This document shows positions 8,181 through 27,818 of a stretch of DNA of 44,015 nt, piece by piece; positions within the stretch are counted from its first letter, which is position 1; each line of letters begins with the position of its first letter. The position numbers were made by a program, and so were the translations under genes. The notes under the pieces are model-generated. The model was not told where the DNA came from, searched no databases, and saw only the letters and a list, made by a program, of their open reading frames with translations. The DNA is from Escherichia phage vB_VIPECOTPH05B. Location: the sequence record PQ429080.1; one strand, given 5' to 3'.

Positions 8181-10865
8181 TTAGTGCGTTGCTTCAAAGA
8201 GCCAATCGCGTAGGTTTTGTTCCAGGTACTTCTTACGCTCAGGTTGGGCCTGCTTGTACGCCGGGGTATTCCGCAGCGCTTGCCAAGCCCTACCCTGGGC
8301 CTCAGATACAGGGTACTGATACGCCCCCACCGGGGACTTAGCAGCCTTGCGTACCTGTGCCATCGCCTCTGCTACAGGGCCAGAGCTACCATTACCACCG
8401 TGATAGTTCAGGTCCACCATTACCTTTAACGCCTCGTCGGAGGCATTCAAACCCTGCCCCTTGAGTTGCTTCTGCACGTTCGGGATGTACTGCTTCTCCA
8501 GGGAGGACTTGAGGATACTGATGCCGTCATCAATGGTCACTTTCTGTGGGACTGGCATGCCAGAGTTAACGTGCAGACCGAAGCCTACACTGCCCTTGCC
8601 CTTACCTTCTCGGAACCCTTCGAACTTCATAGTGGTGGCGAGAATGTCACTAAACAGTGATGGTTCCAGCCCTACCGAGTTACGGCCGTTGACCTGTACG
8701 CTGACAGCGCGCCCGTTGTCGTGGTCGTAGAAGGTGGCGGGACGTACACCTACTTGCTCGCTTCCAATCTTCATCTCCCCAGCCAGTGCTGAGTCATACG
8801 CAGCCTGAGCAGTAGCCTGAACGTCACGAAGATTCACAGACATATCCTGGAATTTGCCCTTCTTGTCAATGACGATTACGGACATGTTCTGGCCCGCGTT
8901 ACCGGCCGTGGCCGCCTGTATCACCACTCGCTCTATGTTGCTGGGGTCAGACAGGTACTGAACTTGATTCTGGATATGCTGCTGCAGCGATGCTGTAAAC
9001 TGCTCCACATCACCTTTGTAGTCCCCCATAAGGGACTGCAGGGAAGTGCCTGGTGGCAGGTACACATGCCTAGGCGCACCAGCAACCTCCAGCTCCAATT
9101 TACGGGATTGGATGTTGCCTTTGAGCATCTTATTAATATCGTCAGCATCCTTACCAGCGAAGGACTCTGGGTTATGGGTTTTAAGGTAGCGGAACTCCTC
9201 CACCATCGCCGCCCGTGCCTCTTGTCGCTGAGCATCAGCATCCCCGAAGAAGCTAAACCAGTTAGCGGTACCGCTTGGGTCCACCATCTTATCTGTCGGA
9301 GTTTCTGGGATATCAGTATAGCGCCCACTGGCCTTGTTACGCGCCTGGCGGCGCAGGTCGTCCAAGATGGTGTTGCTGGCGTTACTGGGGTTCTGGGCAA
9401 TAGCCGACTGCACCACTCCACGCCACTCAGACGGGACCTCGGATAGCAGCGCCATCTTGCCCAAGTCCGTACTAGTGCTATACGCCTGTGCCCACAAGTT
9501 GATGCTGTTGACGTTCTCCCGGGAAACCTCACCGTCCTCGCCGAGCTGGTCCAGCGTAGTAAGCGTACGTGCCATATCCGAAGACATACGCTTGTGCGCT
9601 TCGTTGACTGCCCACGCATCCTTGCTGTTGCTCCCGTATGACAGCAGCTGCAGGTTCCCTTCCGGGGTATCCGGAAAGCTCTTGAGCAGCCGAGTACGTG
9701 CCTTATCTAAGTCTCCCTTGAACATCCCCGCCAGAGTGGAGCTTGGCATATTCCCAGTAATTGCTGTGCGCAATGCTTGGGCGTCTGCTGCCTTCTCTCG
9801 AATGGTCTGGGCTTTGTTCCAGAACTCCATGCTGGTCCCGGCGCTAAGTACATCAGATGCCGACAGCTCAATGACACGACTACGAATACGCGCCATGGTC
9901 TGTTCTTGCTGCTCAGGAGTCTGCCCCTCAAGAGACTGTATTGCATCAGAGATTTCGAAACGGGCTTGGGTCTCAATCTGAGCACCAGCTCGCTTGAACT
10001 CCTGATACAGCGCTGCGTTGACATCCACGGAGTTGACGCCGAGTTCCTTGGTGGCCATTTCCTGCAGCTGGTTGATTACCAGCGGGTCCTGTGTCTGCTG
10101 CGCTACGCTGACCAGATACTGCTTGGCCCGGTCCAGCTTCTTGCTCTTATCCAGGTGCTCAGCAGCCAGGATACTGTCTAAGCCCGTCTTAATGGACATC
10201 TGCGCAGCGGCACCCTGTCCTGCCTGCAGACGCTGATAGAACTCATCGCTGGACGCACTCAGTCCACGGTCGAGGGCACGGTCAGCCTGGGCCAGGGCGA
10301 ACGCAGCACGTCCTTTCTGGAAGGCTGTGTAGTTCGCCATGCTGGTGGCACGGAGCTGCTGCAGTATATTCGTAGCAGACTGCTTGGACATATCCGGGAG
10401 ATACATACCGAGCTTGTCTGACATTGCCTGGACGTGCTCTTGCTCCTGCTGCTGAAATTCCTCGTCAGTCAGGCCAGACTCAGCAGCTTTTTTAGCTCGT
10501 GCGATACTGCTTGTGCGCCACTTGGCTAGCGAGTCATACGCAGCAGCAGATACGTAGCCGTCCTGGTAGGCTTCGCGCACGAAGATGTTTTGCTTCTGTA
10601 CAGCCTCGTCCTTGGAGGCCATTGCATCCACTGCACCCTGAGCATCCATAGCGCCGCGCACGGTGGCCGCCGCTGCATTTTCTTTTACTGCCTCGTCAAA
10701 GCCCACGCCGAAGTCCTGCACAAACCCAGACAGGGCAGCTAGGCGTTTTGCTTTGGAGGTATCAACAGACACTTCACTCACCGTTGACGGCAAGCTAACA
10801 TCGTTGGACTGCAATTGTACGCCGCCGATATTTAGCCCCTGTCTATTGGGTTGAATCACAGGCAT
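8181..10865 (-). CDS. Internal virion protein (gp15 / phiKMV gp36-like), possible C-terminal lysozyme-like domain
   Basis: 894 aa; syntenic with T7 gp15; C-terminal about 150 aa (FEGFREGKGKGSVGFGLH ... VTIDDGISILKSSLEKQY ... ALKVMVDLNYHGG) loosely resembles a T4-lysozyme-type fold. Domain call is tentative. Confidence 0.65.
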   Translation of the reverse strand: MPVIQPNRQGLNIGGVQLQSNDVSLPSTVSEVSVDTSKAKRLAALSGFVQDFGVGFDEAVKENAAAATVRGAMDAQGAVDAMASKDEAVQKQNIFVREAYQDGYVSAAAYDSLAKWRTSSIARAKKAAESGLTDEEFQQQEQEHVQAMSDKLGMYLPDMSKQSATNILQQLRATSMANYTAFQKGRAAFALAQADRALDRGLSASSDEFYQRLQAGQGAAAQMSIKTGLDSILAAEHLDKSKKLDRAKQYLVSVAQQTQDPLVINQLQEMATKELGVNSVDVNAALYQEFKRAGAQIETQARFEISDAIQSLEGQTPEQQEQTMARIRSRVIELSASDVLSAGTSMEFWNKAQTIREKAADAQALRTAITGNMPSSTLAGMFKGDLDKARTRLLKSFPDTPEGNLQLLSYGSNSKDAWAVNEAHKRMSSDMARTLTTLDQLGEDGEVSRENVNSINLWAQAYSTSTDLGKMALLSEVPSEWRGVVQSAIAQNPSNASNTILDDLRRQARNKASGRYTDIPETPTDKMVDPSGTANWFSFFGDADAQRQEARAAMVEEFRYLKTHNPESFAGKDADDINKMLKGNIQSRKLELEVAGAPRHVYLPPGTSLQSLMGDYKGDVEQFTASLQQHIQNQVQYLSDPSNIERVVIQAATAGNAGQNMSVIVIDKKGKFQDMSVNLRDVQATAQAAYDSALAGEMKIGSEQVGVRPATFYDHDNGRAVSVQVNGRNSVGLEPSLFSDILATTMKFEGFREGKGKGSVGFGLHVNSGMPVPQKVTIDDGISILKSSLEKQYIPNVQKQLKGQGLNASDEALKVMVDLNYHGGNGSSGPVAEAMAQVRKAAKSPVGAYQYPVSEAQGRAWQALRNTPAYKQAQPERKKYLEQNLRDWLFEATH

Positions 10866-10882
10866 TTAATATTCCTCTTAAG

Positions 10883-11470
10883 TTACCAGGTGTGAACTGA
10901 GCTGTTACCCTTACTCCCCCATAAGTCATAGGAGGCTGCTGTGCTCTGCGTAGCCGACGCACCACTACCAGGAGATGAGTCGCCAGAGTCAGAAGATGAC
11001 GCAGCGTTACCAGCGTATTTCCCAACAGCGGATGCCCCGACACTCAACAACGAGTTAAACATGTTATCGTACGGGTCCTCCATATCCATGTTAGCCAGGC
11101 CGCTGTCCACGGCCTTGTCCGTCATTAGACGGAAACCCTCTTCCTGAGTTGCCTGCTGGTCACGCACGCTGGCCTCTTGCCGCCCGGCTACAGTGTTCAC
11201 CGTGGCTACGGCGTCTTTAACAGAGGCTCCCATAGTGCCGGAAGCTGCTGCCTGCAGTCCTACTTGGCTCTGTGCCTGCAGCTTCTGCTGCTGGATGTTA
11301 AACAGGGAAACCTCAGTCCGGTCCCTGGACTGGGCGCGCTGTAGAGCGATGTCGTTTAGCTGTTTGGCTGTCTGTTGAATCACAGCCTTGTTCCTGGCCT
11401 TGGACACTTCAATCTGAGCACCCTGCCCCAGAACGGTCTTAGCGGCCATGGCCGCAACCATCCACCACAT
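10883..11470 (-). CDS. Internal virion protein (gp13/gp14-like)
   Basis: 195 aa, hydrophobic N-terminus, Q/A-rich; located between tail tubular protein B and the large internal virion proteins. Confidence 0.5.
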   Translation of the reverse strand: MWWMVAAMAAKTVLGQGAQIEVSKARNKAVIQQTAKQLNDIALQRAQSRDRTEVSLFNIQQQKLQAQSQVGLQAAASGTMGASVKDAVATVNTVAGRQEASVRDQQATQEEGFRLMTDKAVDSGLANMDMEDPYDNMFNSLLSVGASAVGKYAGNAASSSDSGDSSPGSGASATQSTAASYDLWGSKGNSSVHTW

Positions 11471-11471
11471 A

Positions 11472-13832
11472 TTAGATTCTCCGTCTGCGTTGGTTGTAGC
11501 GCAAGATATACGAGATATCCAGCACGTTCAGTTCCATAGAGCCCTCAGTAAACAGTGTAACCTCGGTCGTGTCTGCATTAGTACGGCACGGTACTGTAAT
11601 AGTTGCCAAGTCCATAAGCAGCGCCTGCCCAAGAGTCAGCTCTTTGGAGTTCATTAGGATTCCGGTTAGTTCCCCGTCCCAGCTTACATCGCGCGGCGTA
11701 TCTAGAACTTGCACGTCGAAGTGCCCAGAGTTACGCACAGCAACATCCAGGCGCAGTAGACGCACGTGCCCGCTACCCACTAGCTTATCATTCTGGTCAC
11801 GCAGGATAGGCGTAGTGAGGGTGAACGTGCTCTTGTAGCGCCTACCCAGTACGTAGGTACCATCTGGCACACCCCGGACGACACTCAAGGTGTTCTCCCC
11901 GGCAATCTCCTCGATGCCTACCTCAGTAGGTCCCATTGCATCACTAGAGAGATATGTAAGGATAAGGTCGTCCTTGTAACTATCAACCCAATCAGTCGGA
12001 CGCAATACCTCCGGAACCTCGAATACGCCGTCCTGCACTTGCACTTGCTTCTGCAAATCCGAGTAGGCTTCGCGGTATTCTGAGCCCAGCTGATAACCTT
12101 CACGCGGGTCCATAGACACAATCAGGAGCTTGTTGCTGGGACTGGGCCCTTGCATGTACAAGAACACCTCGTCCTCCAGCGCCTGTACGCTCAGGATTGG
12201 ATACGGGAACGACCACTTATGCCACGCCGCCTGCATCTTAGAGCCGTCACTTCCGCCCCACATGAACTCGTAGACCAGCAGGCTATTACGCTCTCCAGAC
12301 ATGCGCGAGAAGGCCATATTGGTGACACTGGAGTTTTGCATCTGCAATACCCTGCCCGGGATATACCGAGGTAGGTGCACCGTGGCATCCTGCGTAGTGT
12401 ACTGCGCCGCGGTGTAAGGTGATGGGATTAGCTCCAGTATACCAGCGTAGCTGTCGTTGCGCTTGTTCGGGTAGATTACTGTCTGACCAGCCATTACCGG
12501 GATAACGCGGCTGTCACAATCGTAGGTGCTGGTAATACTAATACTTGCGTTAGTTGGCGTGAGTACTGCCGAACCCGGCACAACCGCCTGCATGCTGTTA
12601 GCAAACAGGACCAAGTCCCGGTTGAACTGCACAGCGGTGCGGTACACAGAGTCCTGTGCAGACGCAGAGCTAATGCTGATACGGTCCGTATCCAGCAGTG
12701 ATGTCACAGTAGAGCGGTAGAAGCGCTGATACAGGCCCGAGGCGGACATATCCACGGAGCTACCACTAAGCAGAACCAGGCGCCCCTGGAAAGCTGCGAT
12801 TCCTGTGATGTAACCATTCTCGACGAATCCTGGATTGCTGTTGTTATCGTCGTTACCCGCTAAGCGCCCCTCCCAATCCCTCGCGATGATGTTGTCATCC
12901 GCGGCGAGCTCTCTGGGCATGTTCGTAATCTTAGTGATGCTGCCGTACGCCCCCACCTCAGACCAGGTGCGGGTGCTGTAGCTGAACTGGTACCATGCTG
13001 TCTCAGATGAGGCGGTACCTACACGGCACATTGCCCCGTCAGCTTGCGCCGGGAGCTGTGCAGGAAGGTCCTGCTCCTGGTCTACACGAGACTGGTTGGA
13101 TACCACGGCATAAGTATCTCCAGCGTCAGAGGACACCACGCAGTTGCTCAACCCGTAGAAGAACAAGTATGCTCCGCGTACGCTCACGTTCCCAGAAGGC
13201 AGCCCATTCTCTACAAGAGAGTCACGCAGTTGCTGAGCAACGTAAGCACCTGATACCTCCTCAGCATTACCGCTTGTGCTACCAGCAGCTGGGGCGGTGT
13301 AGTCTCCTGAGTAGTCTACCCCTGCCGAGGTAACGGTGACGTTCCAGCGTTTCTGGAATGCTGCGGATTTAACGTAGAAGAACCCCGTGGTGCTGGGGTC
13401 GATGCGCCCAGTGTTGTCCACGGTCGTGCTTGGGGCCATCTCCGTATTCAGGATATAAGTCAGTCCGGCAATACTTGCCGTCTGCAAAGACGTCTGACCC
13501 ACGGTGGTAATAAAGTATGAGTCATTGCCAGAGTTAAGGATGGTCTTGCCATTCTTAGACAGCAACCACCAGTTACCGTTGCTGGTGTTAATCAGCAGGT
13601 GCCTACCATCAGTCCCACGCTCTACGTATTCAGTGAACAGGGAATCAAGCCCAGGGTTATCGATTGTGCTTTCCCATACAATCTCACCCGGCGGTCTACG
13701 GCGGATACCGGAAACCGGGTCGCTGAGCATATTCAGCTGCGCCCCCAGTTGCCCGGGCTGGCGCTCTCTTGGAACCTGCTGGGAGACGCCCTGCAGCAGG
13801 CTCTGAATGGTACCATCTAGGGACTGGGCCAT
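11472..13832 (-). CDS. Tail tubular protein B (T7 gp12-like)
   Basis: 786 aa (T7 gp12 is of similar size), directly downstream of tail tubular protein A in conserved order. Confidence 0.8.
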   Translation of the reverse strand: MAQSLDGTIQSLLQGVSQQVPRERQPGQLGAQLNMLSDPVSGIRRRPPGEIVWESTIDNPGLDSLFTEYVERGTDGRHLLINTSNGNWWLLSKNGKTILNSGNDSYFITTVGQTSLQTASIAGLTYILNTEMAPSTTVDNTGRIDPSTTGFFYVKSAAFQKRWNVTVTSAGVDYSGDYTAPAAGSTSGNAEEVSGAYVAQQLRDSLVENGLPSGNVSVRGAYLFFYGLSNCVVSSDAGDTYAVVSNQSRVDQEQDLPAQLPAQADGAMCRVGTASSETAWYQFSYSTRTWSEVGAYGSITKITNMPRELAADDNIIARDWEGRLAGNDDNNSNPGFVENGYITGIAAFQGRLVLLSGSSVDMSASGLYQRFYRSTVTSLLDTDRISISSASAQDSVYRTAVQFNRDLVLFANSMQAVVPGSAVLTPTNASISITSTYDCDSRVIPVMAGQTVIYPNKRNDSYAGILELIPSPYTAAQYTTQDATVHLPRYIPGRVLQMQNSSVTNMAFSRMSGERNSLLVYEFMWGGSDGSKMQAAWHKWSFPYPILSVQALEDEVFLYMQGPSPSNKLLIVSMDPREGYQLGSEYREAYSDLQKQVQVQDGVFEVPEVLRPTDWVDSYKDDLILTYLSSDAMGPTEVGIEEIAGENTLSVVRGVPDGTYVLGRRYKSTFTLTTPILRDQNDKLVGSGHVRLLRLDVAVRNSGHFDVQVLDTPRDVSWDGELTGILMNSKELTLGQALLMDLATITVPCRTNADTTEVTLFTEGSMELNVLDISYILRYNQRRRRI

Positions 13833-25564: not shown

Positions 25565-26398
25565 TTAGGCTTGAGGTGCAGCAGGCGCTGCTGGCGCTAC
25601 AGGAGCCGCGGGGGCCACTGGAGCAGCTGGGGCTGCCGGTGCTTGCGGTGCAGCGGGAGCCGCCGGTGCAGAAGGAGCAGCAGGTGCCTGCATAGCTGCC
25701 GGACTCGGAACAGAGCCAGCGTTCAGCATAATATCCAGAGCACTGCCCGGGAAGTCAACAGCCTTGTACATGTCTTCCTGAATCCAGTTCTTGCTCTTAC
25801 CGTCGTCGAAGGTGCCTTCGATGTGCAGGCTATCCCAGGTCTCTTTGGTTGGGTTGTTCCACAGGAACAGCTTAATCTCAGAGGCATCCAGGGCTGGCAT
25901 CTTGATAGGCTCGCCGGTGTTCGGGTCGAACTTCGGAATCGGGCGGATACCGGACAGGTCCACGATGTTAGACTTCTTGCCCGCGGCACTGGTGTGCTCA
26001 TCAATCGGGAAGGTGAAGGCCTGCCCCAGACGCTGTGCCGCATGCTTAATGCTGTTGTCGTAATTGAGCTTGTCGAAGAACTTCTTGAAGCCTGCTCGCT
26101 CAAAGTTACTGATAGCCATCGGGTACGGGCGGATACGCTTCACTTCGCCGTTAGGGCCGAACACTACAATGCCAATGCGTACGTTAGACACTGCAGGCTT
26201 ACCAGTAGGCTTACCACCCTTAGTCGGCAGGCGCTTACCGATTTCCACGTACTCGGTGAAGTAGCCGTAGTACTCACCCTTCGGAAGCAGCACATCCTCG
26301 TACGCACCACCCTGTGAGGTCTCGGTCATATCAACATCTTGCGTTTCGATCGCAGCAGCTACCAGGGAGTTCAGAGTGTCCAGTGCATTCATAGTCAT
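25565..26398 (-). CDS. Hypothetical protein with C-terminal Ala-Pro repeat tail (possible ssDNA-binding protein)
   Basis: 277 aa; GAGGA 10 nt upstream of ATG; ends in about 40 residues of (A/P/Q/V/S) repeats; sits in the replication block where T7-like phages encode SSB, but no diagnostic motif was recognised. Confidence 0.5.
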   Translation of the reverse strand: MTMNALDTLNSLVAAAIETQDVDMTETSQGGAYEDVLLPKGEYYGYFTEYVEIGKRLPTKGGKPTGKPAVSNVRIGIVVFGPNGEVKRIRPYPMAISNFERAGFKKFFDKLNYDNSIKHAAQRLGQAFTFPIDEHTSAAGKKSNIVDLSGIRPIPKFDPNTGEPIKMPALDASEIKLFLWNNPTKETWDSLHIEGTFDDGKSKNWIQEDMYKAVDFPGSALDIMLNAGSVPSPAAMQAPAAPSAPAAPAAPQAPAAPAAPVAPAAPVAPAAPAAPQA

Positions 26399-26453: not shown

Positions 26454-26651
26454 CTAGCGGTTCTTGAGTGCGGACTTAATGCCGATAGCCGCAGCTGCCG
26501 CCACTCCACCCGCCGCCAGAATTGCCAACAGCAAGGCGATGCCGCCGTAGAATGGAAGCAGTACCCACCACCAGGACCAGGCGATAACTCCGGTCAGTTT
26601 CAGGGTTACAAAGATAAGGCCCAGTACAGAACAGATTCCCATTTTCATCAT
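26454..26651 (-). CDS. Small membrane protein (two predicted TM helices)
   Basis: Start taken at the internal ATG cluster (ATGATGAAAATG) just after the phosphoesterase stop, with GAGGTG upstream; sequence GICSVLGLIFVTLKLTGVIAWSWWWVLLPFYGGIALLLAILAAGGVAAAAAIGI. Confidence 0.45.
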   Translation of the reverse strand: MMKMGICSVLGLIFVTLKLTGVIAWSWWWVLLPFYGGIALLLAILAAGGVAAAAAIGIKSALKNR

Positions 26652-26661
26652 CACCTCGATA

Positions 26662-27687
26662 TTATTTAGAACGACCAACCCAACGACCATCGTCGTCGAG
26701 CAGCATCGGAATTAACTGCGGGCAACCCTCAGTGATTACCATCACACCCAGGATTGGTTTCTTGCGGGTGAGCCTGCCATAAGCAAAGGCCATACTCTTG
26801 CGGTCAATTAGACACCCTGCGTACGCCCCGAAGTACAACGCCATGCTGCTAGCCGCATATTGGACCTCGAAGCGGCCATGCTCATGCCCCAACACCAGAG
26901 AGGTGCGCTCATGGGATGCATTGAGCATGAAATCACCGCTGACTTGATGCTGGAACCGTACAGGCCCCAGCGGTGTATTGAGCACCCAAGCATCGGCCCA
27001 CGACCACGCCGGAGCACCGTGCTCAGGGAATAGGATATCCCGGTACTTCTTGATAAATTGCACTGGCAAACCGTGAGCTTTAGCGCGGCGATATACGAGT
27101 GAACCATGATTGGAATCGCAAACCAGTAGGTTCGGGAATAGTTCATGCAGCTCCTCCAGTACGAGCTTGGCTTTCTCCAGCTCAACCCCGGCGCTGTCCA
27201 GGTTAGGGTCAGAGTCATGGAAGCTGATAGCGTGCCCGTCGGTTTCGTCACCAACCTGCACTACCATGTCCGGGCAGTACGCATCACGTACGCTCTCAAG
27301 GAATGGCATAGCGTCTACGTGGGTATACGGAGCGTGCAGGTCTCCTACCACCAGGATGCGGTGGCACATGTCCGGCACCTTTGTATTCCCGATATCGTCC
27401 GTTGGGCTTGGTTGGATTAGCTTACGCGCCGCCTGCAGCCCGCGGTTGGCACTGGCCTTGCTGCCCTTGTTATCCATGAATATGCTGCGCCAGTAGCGCA
27501 CAAGCTGGCGGGATACACTAATGTCCGTATCCACATCCCCACGGTTGTCCAGCTCCTGGTTGTAGTACTGCGCGGCCAGGGCGTTGTCAAGGTACTGACC
27601 TAGGATTGCCTGGTGCTGCTCTTTGGTGAATAGTTTTATTAGACTGACTCTAGCCAAGGTTGCCTCTCTTGTGTTGTTCCTACTCAT
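26662..27687 (-). CDS. Calcineurin-like metallophosphoesterase with an N-terminal extension of about 100 aa
   Basis: 341 aa; motifs VVGDLHAPY, GDETDGH, DSNHG, GHEHGRF match the metallophosphatase signature; no obvious SD before the ATG. Confidence 0.75.
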   Translation of the reverse strand: MSRNNTREATLARVSLIKLFTKEQHQAILGQYLDNALAAQYYNQELDNRGDVDTDISVSRQLVRYWRSIFMDNKGSKASANRGLQAARKLIQPSPTDDIGNTKVPDMCHRILVVGDLHAPYTHVDAMPFLESVRDAYCPDMVVQVGDETDGHAISFHDSDPNLDSAGVELEKAKLVLEELHELFPNLLVCDSNHGSLVYRRAKAHGLPVQFIKKYRDILFPEHGAPAWSWADAWVLNTPLGPVRFQHQVSGDFMLNASHERTSLVLGHEHGRFEVQYAASSMALYFGAYAGCLIDRKSMAFAYGRLTRKKPILGVMVITEGCPQLIPMLLDDDGRWVGRSK

Positions 27688-27818
27688 ATCACATTAATTT
27701 GCTGAGAATCACAGAATCAAGCCAGAGTCAACAAATAATTTTATTTAATTATTTAGTTGACCCTAGTGTATTTCCATGCTACCCTAACCCCCTACACCAC
27801 TCAAGGATCCACCTATCA
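27688..27818 (-). promoter_or_regulatory. AT-rich intergenic region with imperfect inverted repeat (GTCAACAAATAA ... TTATTTAGTTGAC)
   Basis: 131 bp with no ORF in a genome where most genes overlap; AT content well above the rest; repeat arms at about 27727..27738 and 27749..27761; TTGACT/TTGATT -35-like hexamers on the minus strand. Confidence 0.35.

Follow-up and report, generated by a model that had tools for sequence, protein, structure and literature searches.

The nearest characterised relatives of the gene described here, which encodes a metallophosphoesterase (MPE) on the minus strand of Escherichia phage vB_VIPECOTPH05B (PQ429080.1; the whole stretch of 44,015 nucleotides is referred to as the window), are of the type of gp47 of mycobacteriophage Bxb1 and its cluster A homologue Gp48 of phage A10ZJ24, enzymes that have been linked to phage DNA replication and to nuclease activity (PMC11795197, PMC12287305). 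Gp48 is expressed early and acts as a phosphodiesterase; in vitro it breaks down genomic and plasmid DNA as well as linear DNA, and its motif-I mutant D10G is inactive. In vivo it damages the DNA of the host, and replication of the phage DNA in M. tuberculosis depends on it (PMC12287305). Bxb1 gp47 moonlights as a directionality factor of the serine integrase through protein-protein contact, and it has been proposed to need partners (PMC11795197); the directionality role is irrelevant to the gene in the window, which belongs to a strictly lytic podophage without an integrase. Like gp47 and Gp48, the protein studied here is phage-encoded, has a homologous core and comes from a DNA-replication gene block, and it shares with them the structural neighbours Mre11, PolD DP1 and LpxH (PMC11795197). 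Unlike it, gp47 and Gp48 are stand-alone cores of ~255 residues without an N-terminal domain. Taking all evidence together, the protein would be a DNA-tethered phosphodiesterase or nuclease of the replication/recombination block, built from a helix-turn-helix (HTH)-like head and an MPE core, a reading to which we assign a probability of about 0.5.

The protein falls within phrog_221 ('metallo-phosphoesterase'), an annotation that recurs in hundreds of phage genomes and that matches residues 7-340 of the 341-residue open reading frame (ORF) to positions 10-359 of the 367 in the profile (E = 2.5e-112, 376.7 bits). Residues are otherwise numbered on the 331-residue protein (i.e. the 341-residue ORF number minus 10). 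The only Pfam match is to Metallophos (residues 110-167 of the 341-residue ORF), and it stays below threshold (18.7 bits versus a gathering threshold of 21.5; E = 0.0025). Since 92 of 147 family members do match Metallophos at E <= 0.01 (best E 2.5e-13), the protein appears to be a divergent branch of the calcineurin-like metallophosphoesterase superfamily (PF00149 clan) rather than a non-member. All five superfamily motifs (DxH, GDxxD, GNH-like, H and GxH) are present, their conservation having been scored across the 147 diverse family members (Table 1), and because these motifs and the metal ligands are kept, the enzyme should be catalytically competent. In sequence searches against the PDB, nothing useful was found with the single protein and only chance matches to CRASP-2 with the family profile, while the sole NCBIfam result, a match to Tom40, was set aside as meaningless.

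An AlphaFold2 model computed from the alignment of 147 diverse family members reached a mean predicted local distance difference test score (pLDDT) of 94.7 and a predicted template modelling score of 0.81, and replaced a shallow run with 17 sequences in which the core was poor (pLDDT 58) and the N-terminal domain confident. Foldseek with the model gave 80 PDB matches at E <= 0.001, and the top 50 listed are all of the MPE fold, a two-sheet sandwich with flanking helices, with MjMre11-DNA as the best match (E = 5.4e-7) and LpxH, Vps29, YfcE and PolD DP1 among the others; no solved structure is a close relative. The family profile matches K1E gp22 with 325 bits and Bxb1 gp47 with 38.8 bits, in the latter case with profile positions 11-214 on gp47 residues 2-223 and every motif block aligned; the kinship to gp47 is remote (superfamily or family level) and not one of orthology. 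In several distant members of 470-637 residues (P0125, P0127, P0175, P0177, P0247 and Proteus phage RS8pmA A0A514CY74) a large insertion begins with a Cys right after the GDE of motif II, and in P0175 it contains LAGLIDADG_3 above the Pfam threshold (30 bits); from their sequences, these insertions look like inteins in the active-site motif. Insertion of inteins is typical of enzymes of nucleic-acid metabolism.

An exhaustive search among 1.84 billion representatives retrieved 1562 relatives of the protein. In the best 150 of these, the segment before the core is at most 15 residues long in 83 and longer than 40 residues in 64, while only seven of the extensions are detectably similar by phmmer to the N-terminal domain in the window. 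A Pfam scan of the 147 members found HTH_23 in eight, HTH_28 in four, HTH_3, HTH_29 and HTH_38 in three each, HTH_psq, HTH_SB and others, as well as HNH_repeat in three. When ten members were checked singly, the HTH matches lay at residues ~2-50, ahead of the core. Extensions of the HTH_23 (33.7 bits in P0148, 29.3 bits in P0265), HTH_psq (39.9 bits in P0140) and HTH_3 types exceed the Pfam gathering thresholds, and P0156 carries an HNH-associated repeat (49.7 bits). Because many members carry such HTH or HNH-associated modules ahead of the core, the N-terminus of the family is a recurrent attachment point, a fusion hot spot, for DNA-binding modules. A 'zinc-ribbon' (P0192) and an 'AP2-like' extension (P0213), both called by eye, were not confirmed by Pfam and have not been used.

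In the window, the first-pass annotation had placed the phosphoesterase motifs about 110 residues into the ORF, behind a segment without assigned function, and both statements hold: GDLH occupies residues 115-118 of the 341-residue ORF, where the Metallophos match starts at residue 110, and the first ~109 residues alone match no Pfam family. In line with its proposal of an extra N-terminal domain, the predicted boundaries (N-terminal domain 1-78, linker 79-99, core 100-331) make the extension a separate folded module. Mean identity climbs along the protein, from 49% in helices 1-2 through 64% in helices 3-4 and 77% in the linker to 87% in the core. At least 90% conservation is seen in 57% of the linker columns, and P93, S94, D97, D98, G100, T102 and P105 (341-residue numbering) are invariant in an alignment of 16 homologues.

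The N-terminal domain is probably a diverged HTH that binds nucleic acid, as is suggested by its sequence pattern, by profile comparisons and by its charge. Its alignment reads FTKEQHxxIL in helix 1, AAxxYN in helix 2, a conserved Gly and then VSRQLVxYW, with W56 invariant and Q51, V53 and Y55 nearly so, and this pattern resembles the xxxAAxxLGVSRxTVxxW of bona fide HTH extensions. With hhalign, the domain aligns over 53 columns to an intermediate group that includes the K1E/SP6-type proteins (98.8% probability, E = 8e-17), and this group in turn aligns to the bona fide HTH extensions with the three helices in register (70%, E = 3.9e-5), at a score of 24.4 versus 6.3 ± 1.2 for column-shuffled controls. 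The direct alignment between the domain and the HTH extensions has a probability of 8%; its score of 16.4 lies above all 30 shuffles (7.7 ± 1.5), and it aligns the conserved Gly and the recognition helix. Helices 3-4 stand out by their charge: in a protein that is acidic elsewhere, this segment carries a net +6 (isoelectric point 11.8), and every one of the 120 sequences in the alignment of close homologues is basic here (mean +4.8, minimum +2). The loop at the turn has a mean identity of 6% among 119 close homologues, in which the helix 2-helix 3 segment varies from 9 to 36 residues (mode 12, with 17 in the window), the shortest versions having a canonical tight turn.

Table 1. Positions in the window of the MPE gene, its ribosome-binding site and the predicted domains and motifs of its product
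Feature	Residues	Position	Strand	Remarks
Complete gene, HTH-like + metallophosphoesterase protein	1-331	26662..27657	-	TTG start at 27657-27655; from deposited coding sequence, homologue N-termini and start-region alignment
Shine-Dalgarno GAGAGG		27663..27668	-	5-nt spacer before the TTG start
N-terminal helical domain	1-78	27424..27657	-	Helices 6-9, 12-21, 25-38, 50-62 and 67-78 (AlphaFold2); putative diverged HTH
Hypervariable loop RGDVDTDIS	39-47	27517..27543	-	Follows the conserved Gly directly, as an insertion at the HTH turn
Putative recognition helix VSRQLVRYWRSIF	48-60	27478..27516	-	Most conserved part of the N-terminal domain; invariant Trp
Conserved interdomain linker KLIQPSPTDDIGNTKVPDMCH	79-99	27361..27423	-	Non-regular; 77% mean identity
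Metallophosphoesterase core, alpha/beta	100-331	26665..27360	-	Occurs alone in 83 of the best 150 representatives
Motif I GDLH	105-108	27334..27345	-	Putative metal ligands Asp106 and His108, at least 90% conserved
Motif II GDETDGH	136-142	27232..27252	-	Asp137 invariant, Asp140 at least 90% conserved
Motif III SNHG	182-185	27103..27114	-	Asn183 and His184 invariant
Motif IV His237	237	26947..26949	-	Invariant
Motif V GHEH	257-260	26878..26889	-	His258 at least 90% conserved, His260 invariant

All genes of the region are on the minus strand, and the gene is preceded on its 5' side by those for a primase, a DnaB-like helicase, an HNH protein and the DNA polymerase and by a 72-residue ORF, and followed by seven small ORFs of unknown function, a 5'-3' exonuclease/RNaseH, endonuclease VII, a nucleotide kinase and the RNA polymerase. 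A block of DNA-metabolism genes is the setting in three lineages. In the window the gene comes after that for the DNA polymerase; in K1E the genes for an exonuclease and for endonuclease VII precede it, and in Bxb1 it is flanked by those for the polymerase and the primase. The metagenomic contexts of family members were phage in seven of seven cases, with a 5'-3' exonuclease and a ribonucleotide reductase as neighbours in one context, AAA_24 and Prim-Pol in another and a deoxynucleoside monophosphate (dNMP) kinase directly after the gene in a third.

In the reading that we prefer, the basic helices 3-4 of the HTH-like head would bind DNA and hold the catalytic core on it, while the conserved linker would position the binuclear metal centre. 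The core would then hydrolyse DNA phosphodiester bonds in a Mn2+- or Mg2+-dependent manner, as an exo- and/or endonuclease, in the service of phage DNA replication, of the processing of ends or recombination intermediates, and/or of host-DNA breakdown. The boundaries of gene and domains, the intact motifs, the fold, the homology to gp47, the pattern of fusions and the genomic setting were established here; we infer DNA binding by the N-terminal domain, DNA as the substrate and this biological role from the homology to gp47, the DNA-acting fold neighbours, the DNA-binding fusions, the basic helices, the replication setting and the apparent motif-II inteins. The suggestion of the first-pass annotation that the extension may target the enzyme fits these data, with the extensions elsewhere in the family being DNA-binding modules and the N-terminal domain in the window looking like a diverged basic HTH. 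Of the two roles it had named, DNA repair is closer to the evidence (the nearest characterised relatives being the gp47-type enzymes of DNA replication and nuclease function), whereas protein dephosphorylation is poorly matched.

Several points weigh against a DNA-tethered nuclease. No Pfam HTH model was matched by the N-terminal domain or by any of 30 N-terminal domain sequences at E <= 10, a profile search with the domain against PDB sequences gave nothing significant, and Foldseek with the shallow full-length model, in which the core was poor and this domain confident, gave a best E of 0.2, which is noise. The assignment as HTH thus depends on a transitive chain with a weakest link of 70%, on a direct link of 8% and on charge, and canonical DNA binding could be changed or even lost through the loop inserted at the turn, which adds up to ~25 residues in relatives. 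As to the core, the query TM-scores are low (0.34-0.38, with 0.44 for PolD DP1) and the neighbours include the non-nuclease MPEs LpxH and Vps29, which means that the fold does not identify the substrate. Motif I of Bxb1 gp47 reads DTQ and does not have the motif-I His of the protein in the window, so its function may not transfer, and the reported nuclease activity of gp47 is itself weak, contamination not having been excluded (PMC11795197). Finally, some family members are found outside replication modules, adjoining terminase or lysis/integrase genes; the replication-module setting of the family is common but not universal.

The absence of a direct match between the N-terminal domain and any HTH model would also suit a protein-protein adaptor, which would dock the enzyme on a replisome component (DNA polymerase, helicase) or on a host protein and whose loop would co-evolve with that partner. 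The faster evolution of the domain relative to the core (49-64% versus 87% identity), the divergence of the loop in identity (6%) and in segment length (9-36 residues), and the location of the gene after the DNA polymerase gene would all be explained in this way, and gp47 provides an example of action through protein contact with an integrase, with a proposed need for partners (PMC11795197). We nevertheless consider an adaptor doubtful, since the extensions of other members are recognisable DNA-binding modules rather than adaptor domains, and since the conserved basic helix 3-4 and the in-register HTH alignment point to nucleic acid. Small nucleotides (cyclic nucleotides, Ap4A-type compounds or (d)NMPs) as substrates, be it against host immune signals or for nucleotide pools and with the HTH-like domain regulatory or vestigial, seem rather unlikely. 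MPEs do include cyclic-nucleotide phosphodiesterases, a counter-nucleotide defence role has been proposed for calcineurin-like enzymes of phages (PMC7824862), and D29 gp66 is reported, in work cited in PMC12287305, to hydrolyse cyclic AMP; this last protein is from another family of MPEs (3.7 bits), and the nearest characterised relatives act on DNA. A dNMP kinase directly after the MPE gene, which would fit a function in nucleotide pools, was seen in K1E and one metagenomic phage, i.e. in only two of the contexts examined, and fusions to DNA-binding modules would be left unexplained.

The gene order of K1E (phosphoesterase, nucleotide kinase, DNA ligase) could further be taken to indicate an end-healing phosphatase or 2',3'-cyclic phosphodiesterase that, together with a kinase and a ligase, repairs RNA or DNA ends as Pnkp does. 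The healing phosphatase of bacterial Pnkp is an MPE, and there is a 'nucleotide kinase' (phrog_2585) in the window, too, but this kinase is ~4 kb away, the Drulisvirus in the window has no annotated ligase, and PDB sequence and fold searches revealed no similarity to Pnkp, which makes end healing improbable. Least credible of all is a protein Ser/Thr phosphatase like lambda NinI, for which the N-terminal domain would choose the protein substrates. NinI is a phage-encoded MPE as well, and besides the superfamily motifs there is a local match of 10.5 bits to the family profile over motifs I-II; this match spans only ~46 residues, and NinI differs in motifs II and III and in genomic context and has no N-terminal domain. 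Phosphoprotein phosphatases (PPPs) carry the signatures GDxHG, GDxVDRG and GNHE, whereas the corresponding motifs in the window are GDLHA, GDETDGH and SNHG. In addition, there is no PPP enzyme in the top 50 structural neighbours listed, and no PPP-specific NCBIfam or Pfam model was matched.

Comparison with other MPEs of DNA metabolism delimits the DNA-tethered reading further. With Mre11/SbcD, the protein shares the MPE fold and a binuclear metal centre acting on DNA (the latter would apply to the protein in the window), at a TM-score of only ~0.34. Membership of the Mre11/SbcD group was rejected, the core ending ~70 residues past motif V without a capping domain and no Rad50/SbcC ATPase being found among 60 annotated genes; instead, DNA contact would come from the N-terminal HTH-like domain. 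DP1, the small subunit of archaeal PolD and a proofreading 3'-5' exonuclease, is likewise an MPE-fold protein associated with a polymerase, has the highest query TM-score in the PDB list (0.44) and finds a parallel in the proximity of the phosphoesterase and polymerase genes. A DP1-like editing role is unattractive, given that there is no OB fold or DP2 partner and that the DxE Exo I-like motif at the start of the family-A polymerase leaves no obvious need for a separate editing subunit. A relationship to T5 A1, as suggested by PMC7824862, was rejected (2.9 or 3.7 bits against the family profile, the lower score at motif III), and so was D29 gp66 as a relative.

Much closer are the phrog_221 proteins of Autographiviridae (K1E gene 22, Pseudomonas phage Andromeda and Pectobacterium phage PP1), which have the same two-module architecture; BFVD matches to Autographiviridae phosphoesterases reach down to E = 1.5e-47. 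The K1E-type N-terminal domains fall into the intermediate subgroup, in which the HTH turn is tighter, and otherwise show no essential difference from the one in the window. An N-terminal domain of the present type occurs in 430 records, always in the phosphoesterase gene, and is confined to podophages of ~40-45 kb that infect Klebsiella, Pectobacterium, Pseudomonas, Aeromonas, Escherichia and others. A profile search of 5.8 billion proteins found it neither with another partner nor as a credible stand-alone gene, the short 'stand-alone' matches being contig-end fragments or frameshifted copies. BFVD lists the two modules of Escherichia phage K1E as separate entries (A0A2I4Q1Y4, 237 residues, and A0A2I4Q1Z7, 104 residues; the N-terminal domain matches over 93 columns with rmsd 1.0 and 47% identity), which is not general: in RefSeq K1E (NC_007637) gene 22 is a single ORF of 336 residues, and the split entries probably reflect a frameshift or a difference in annotation between isolates. 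One relative of 407 residues (P0122) has two tandem copies of the N-terminal domain (LFTxAEHxxI...AAxxYN...) before a single catalytic core.

The protein in the window is thus an ordinary, typical member of an already annotated and widely conserved phage family, and the result refines the annotation of such a gene; an HTH-fused version of a known phage enzyme will not surprise a specialist. Literature searches found no functional work on the gene in Autographiviridae, and it is annotated only as 'phosphoesterase' in hundreds of podophages of Klebsiella, Pectobacterium, Pseudomonas and Aeromonas that are candidates for therapy. What the analysis adds is a corrected start, domain boundaries, evidence for a diverged basic HTH with a hypervariable insertion at the turn, apparently interchangeable DNA-binding heads across the family, the homology of the core to gp47/Gp48, and with these a concrete and testable hypothesis, i.e. 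a DNA-tethered nuclease for replication or host-DNA breakdown. Breakdown of host DNA or a counter-defence function in the manner of Gp48, if the enzyme has either, would have consequences for host range and for how safe and effective these phages are as therapy candidates. More speculatively, gp47-like MPEs could be modular DNA-targeted nucleases with swappable DNA-binding heads (HTH_23, Psq, HNH-associated repeats, the fast-evolving HTH of Autographiviridae), in which the head of the KP34-like phages would give host- or sequence-specific targeting and its loop would track differences between hosts. Should this tentative view be true, one consequence might be that host DNA is destroyed selectively and the expression of defences thereby shut down, as has been reported for A10ZJ24 Gp48.

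The start of the gene differs from the one given in the first-pass annotation, which had used ATG 27687, i.e. the full 341-codon ORF of the ORF list (26662..27687, -). Homologue N-termini, the deposited coding sequence, the Shine-Dalgarno sequence and the codons of relatives all agree on a start 30 nt (10 codons) further downstream, and the gene therefore consists of 26662..27657 (-), encoding 331 instead of 341 residues and a stop. In fact, residue 11 of the 341-residue ORF is the N-terminus in 16 of 16 aligned homologues, which begin with MAK or MPK, and the deposited coding sequence starts with TTG 27657. In the start-region alignment, ATG 27687 is replaced by ACG in phages CX1 and IME323-1, while in P252 and VLCpiA1o the matching stretch falls within an inserted Gp5.5-like gene. 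At 27657, by comparison, the start codon is kept as TTG in CX1 and IME323-1 and as ATG in P252 and VLCpiA1o, preceded in all four by a Shine-Dalgarno sequence (GAGAGG in the former two, GGAGAA in the same place in the latter two). With the corrected start, the segment before the core still counts 99 residues, and the view that the extension is translated stands: rather than being left untranslated by a downstream start, the N-terminal segment is conserved in 430 phage records and folds confidently.

The 160-nt gap on the 5' side of the gene (27658-27818, -) contains a leader of ~90 nt, including TTGACT, that is nearly identical in CX1 and IME323-1. In P252 and VLCpiA1o this slot holds an additional gene, Gp5.5-like and labelled 'host H-NS inhibition', which reaches right up to the start of the phosphoesterase gene. 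With a leader in some relatives and a Gp5.5-like gene in others, the slot is a variable site for accessory genes. A scan for promoters and terminators around the gene yielded nothing above shuffled expectation, consensus promoters not exceeding chance.

Over 2.1 kb around the gene, the window is 100% identical to Klebsiella phage vB_VIPKPNMC07C (PQ505478; Autographiviridae, Slopekvirinae, Drulisvirus) and 88-92% identical to many other KP34-like phages, and by this measure the window belongs to a Drulisvirus, a KP34-like Klebsiella podophage. In K1E (10096-12829) the phosphoesterase gene is followed by a nucleotide/dNMP kinase and then a DNA ligase, and in a metagenomic phage unrelated to K1E (L012, 8001-9799) a dNMP kinase gene comes directly after that of an HTH_23-headed MPE. 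A general linkage between MPE and dNMP kinase was rejected, as none of five other contexts showed this adjacency and the kinase in the window is ~4 kb away.

The gene just downstream of the phosphoesterase gene (26454-26648, -) encodes a very hydrophobic protein of 64 residues (phrog_1374) with two apparent transmembrane segments; in the ORF list it runs on to 26690 and overlaps the stop of the phosphoesterase gene, while its annotated start is at 26648. At 25565-26398 (-) follows a protein of 277 residues (phrog_862, unknown function) with an Ala/Pro-rich, low-complexity C-terminal tail (PAAPSAPAAPAAPQAPAAPAAPVAPAAP...), and the label 'large tegument protein' that a phrog_862 homologue carries in some GenBank records is almost certainly spurious and driven by this tail. 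Finally, the 60 genes of PQ505478 include three annotated HNH endonuclease genes, namely one of phrog_7545 and two of phrog_99, of which one copy immediately precedes the DNA polymerase gene and the other lies between the scaffold and major capsid genes. Three HNH genes in a 44-kb genome suggest active homing-endonuclease traffic in this group of phages.

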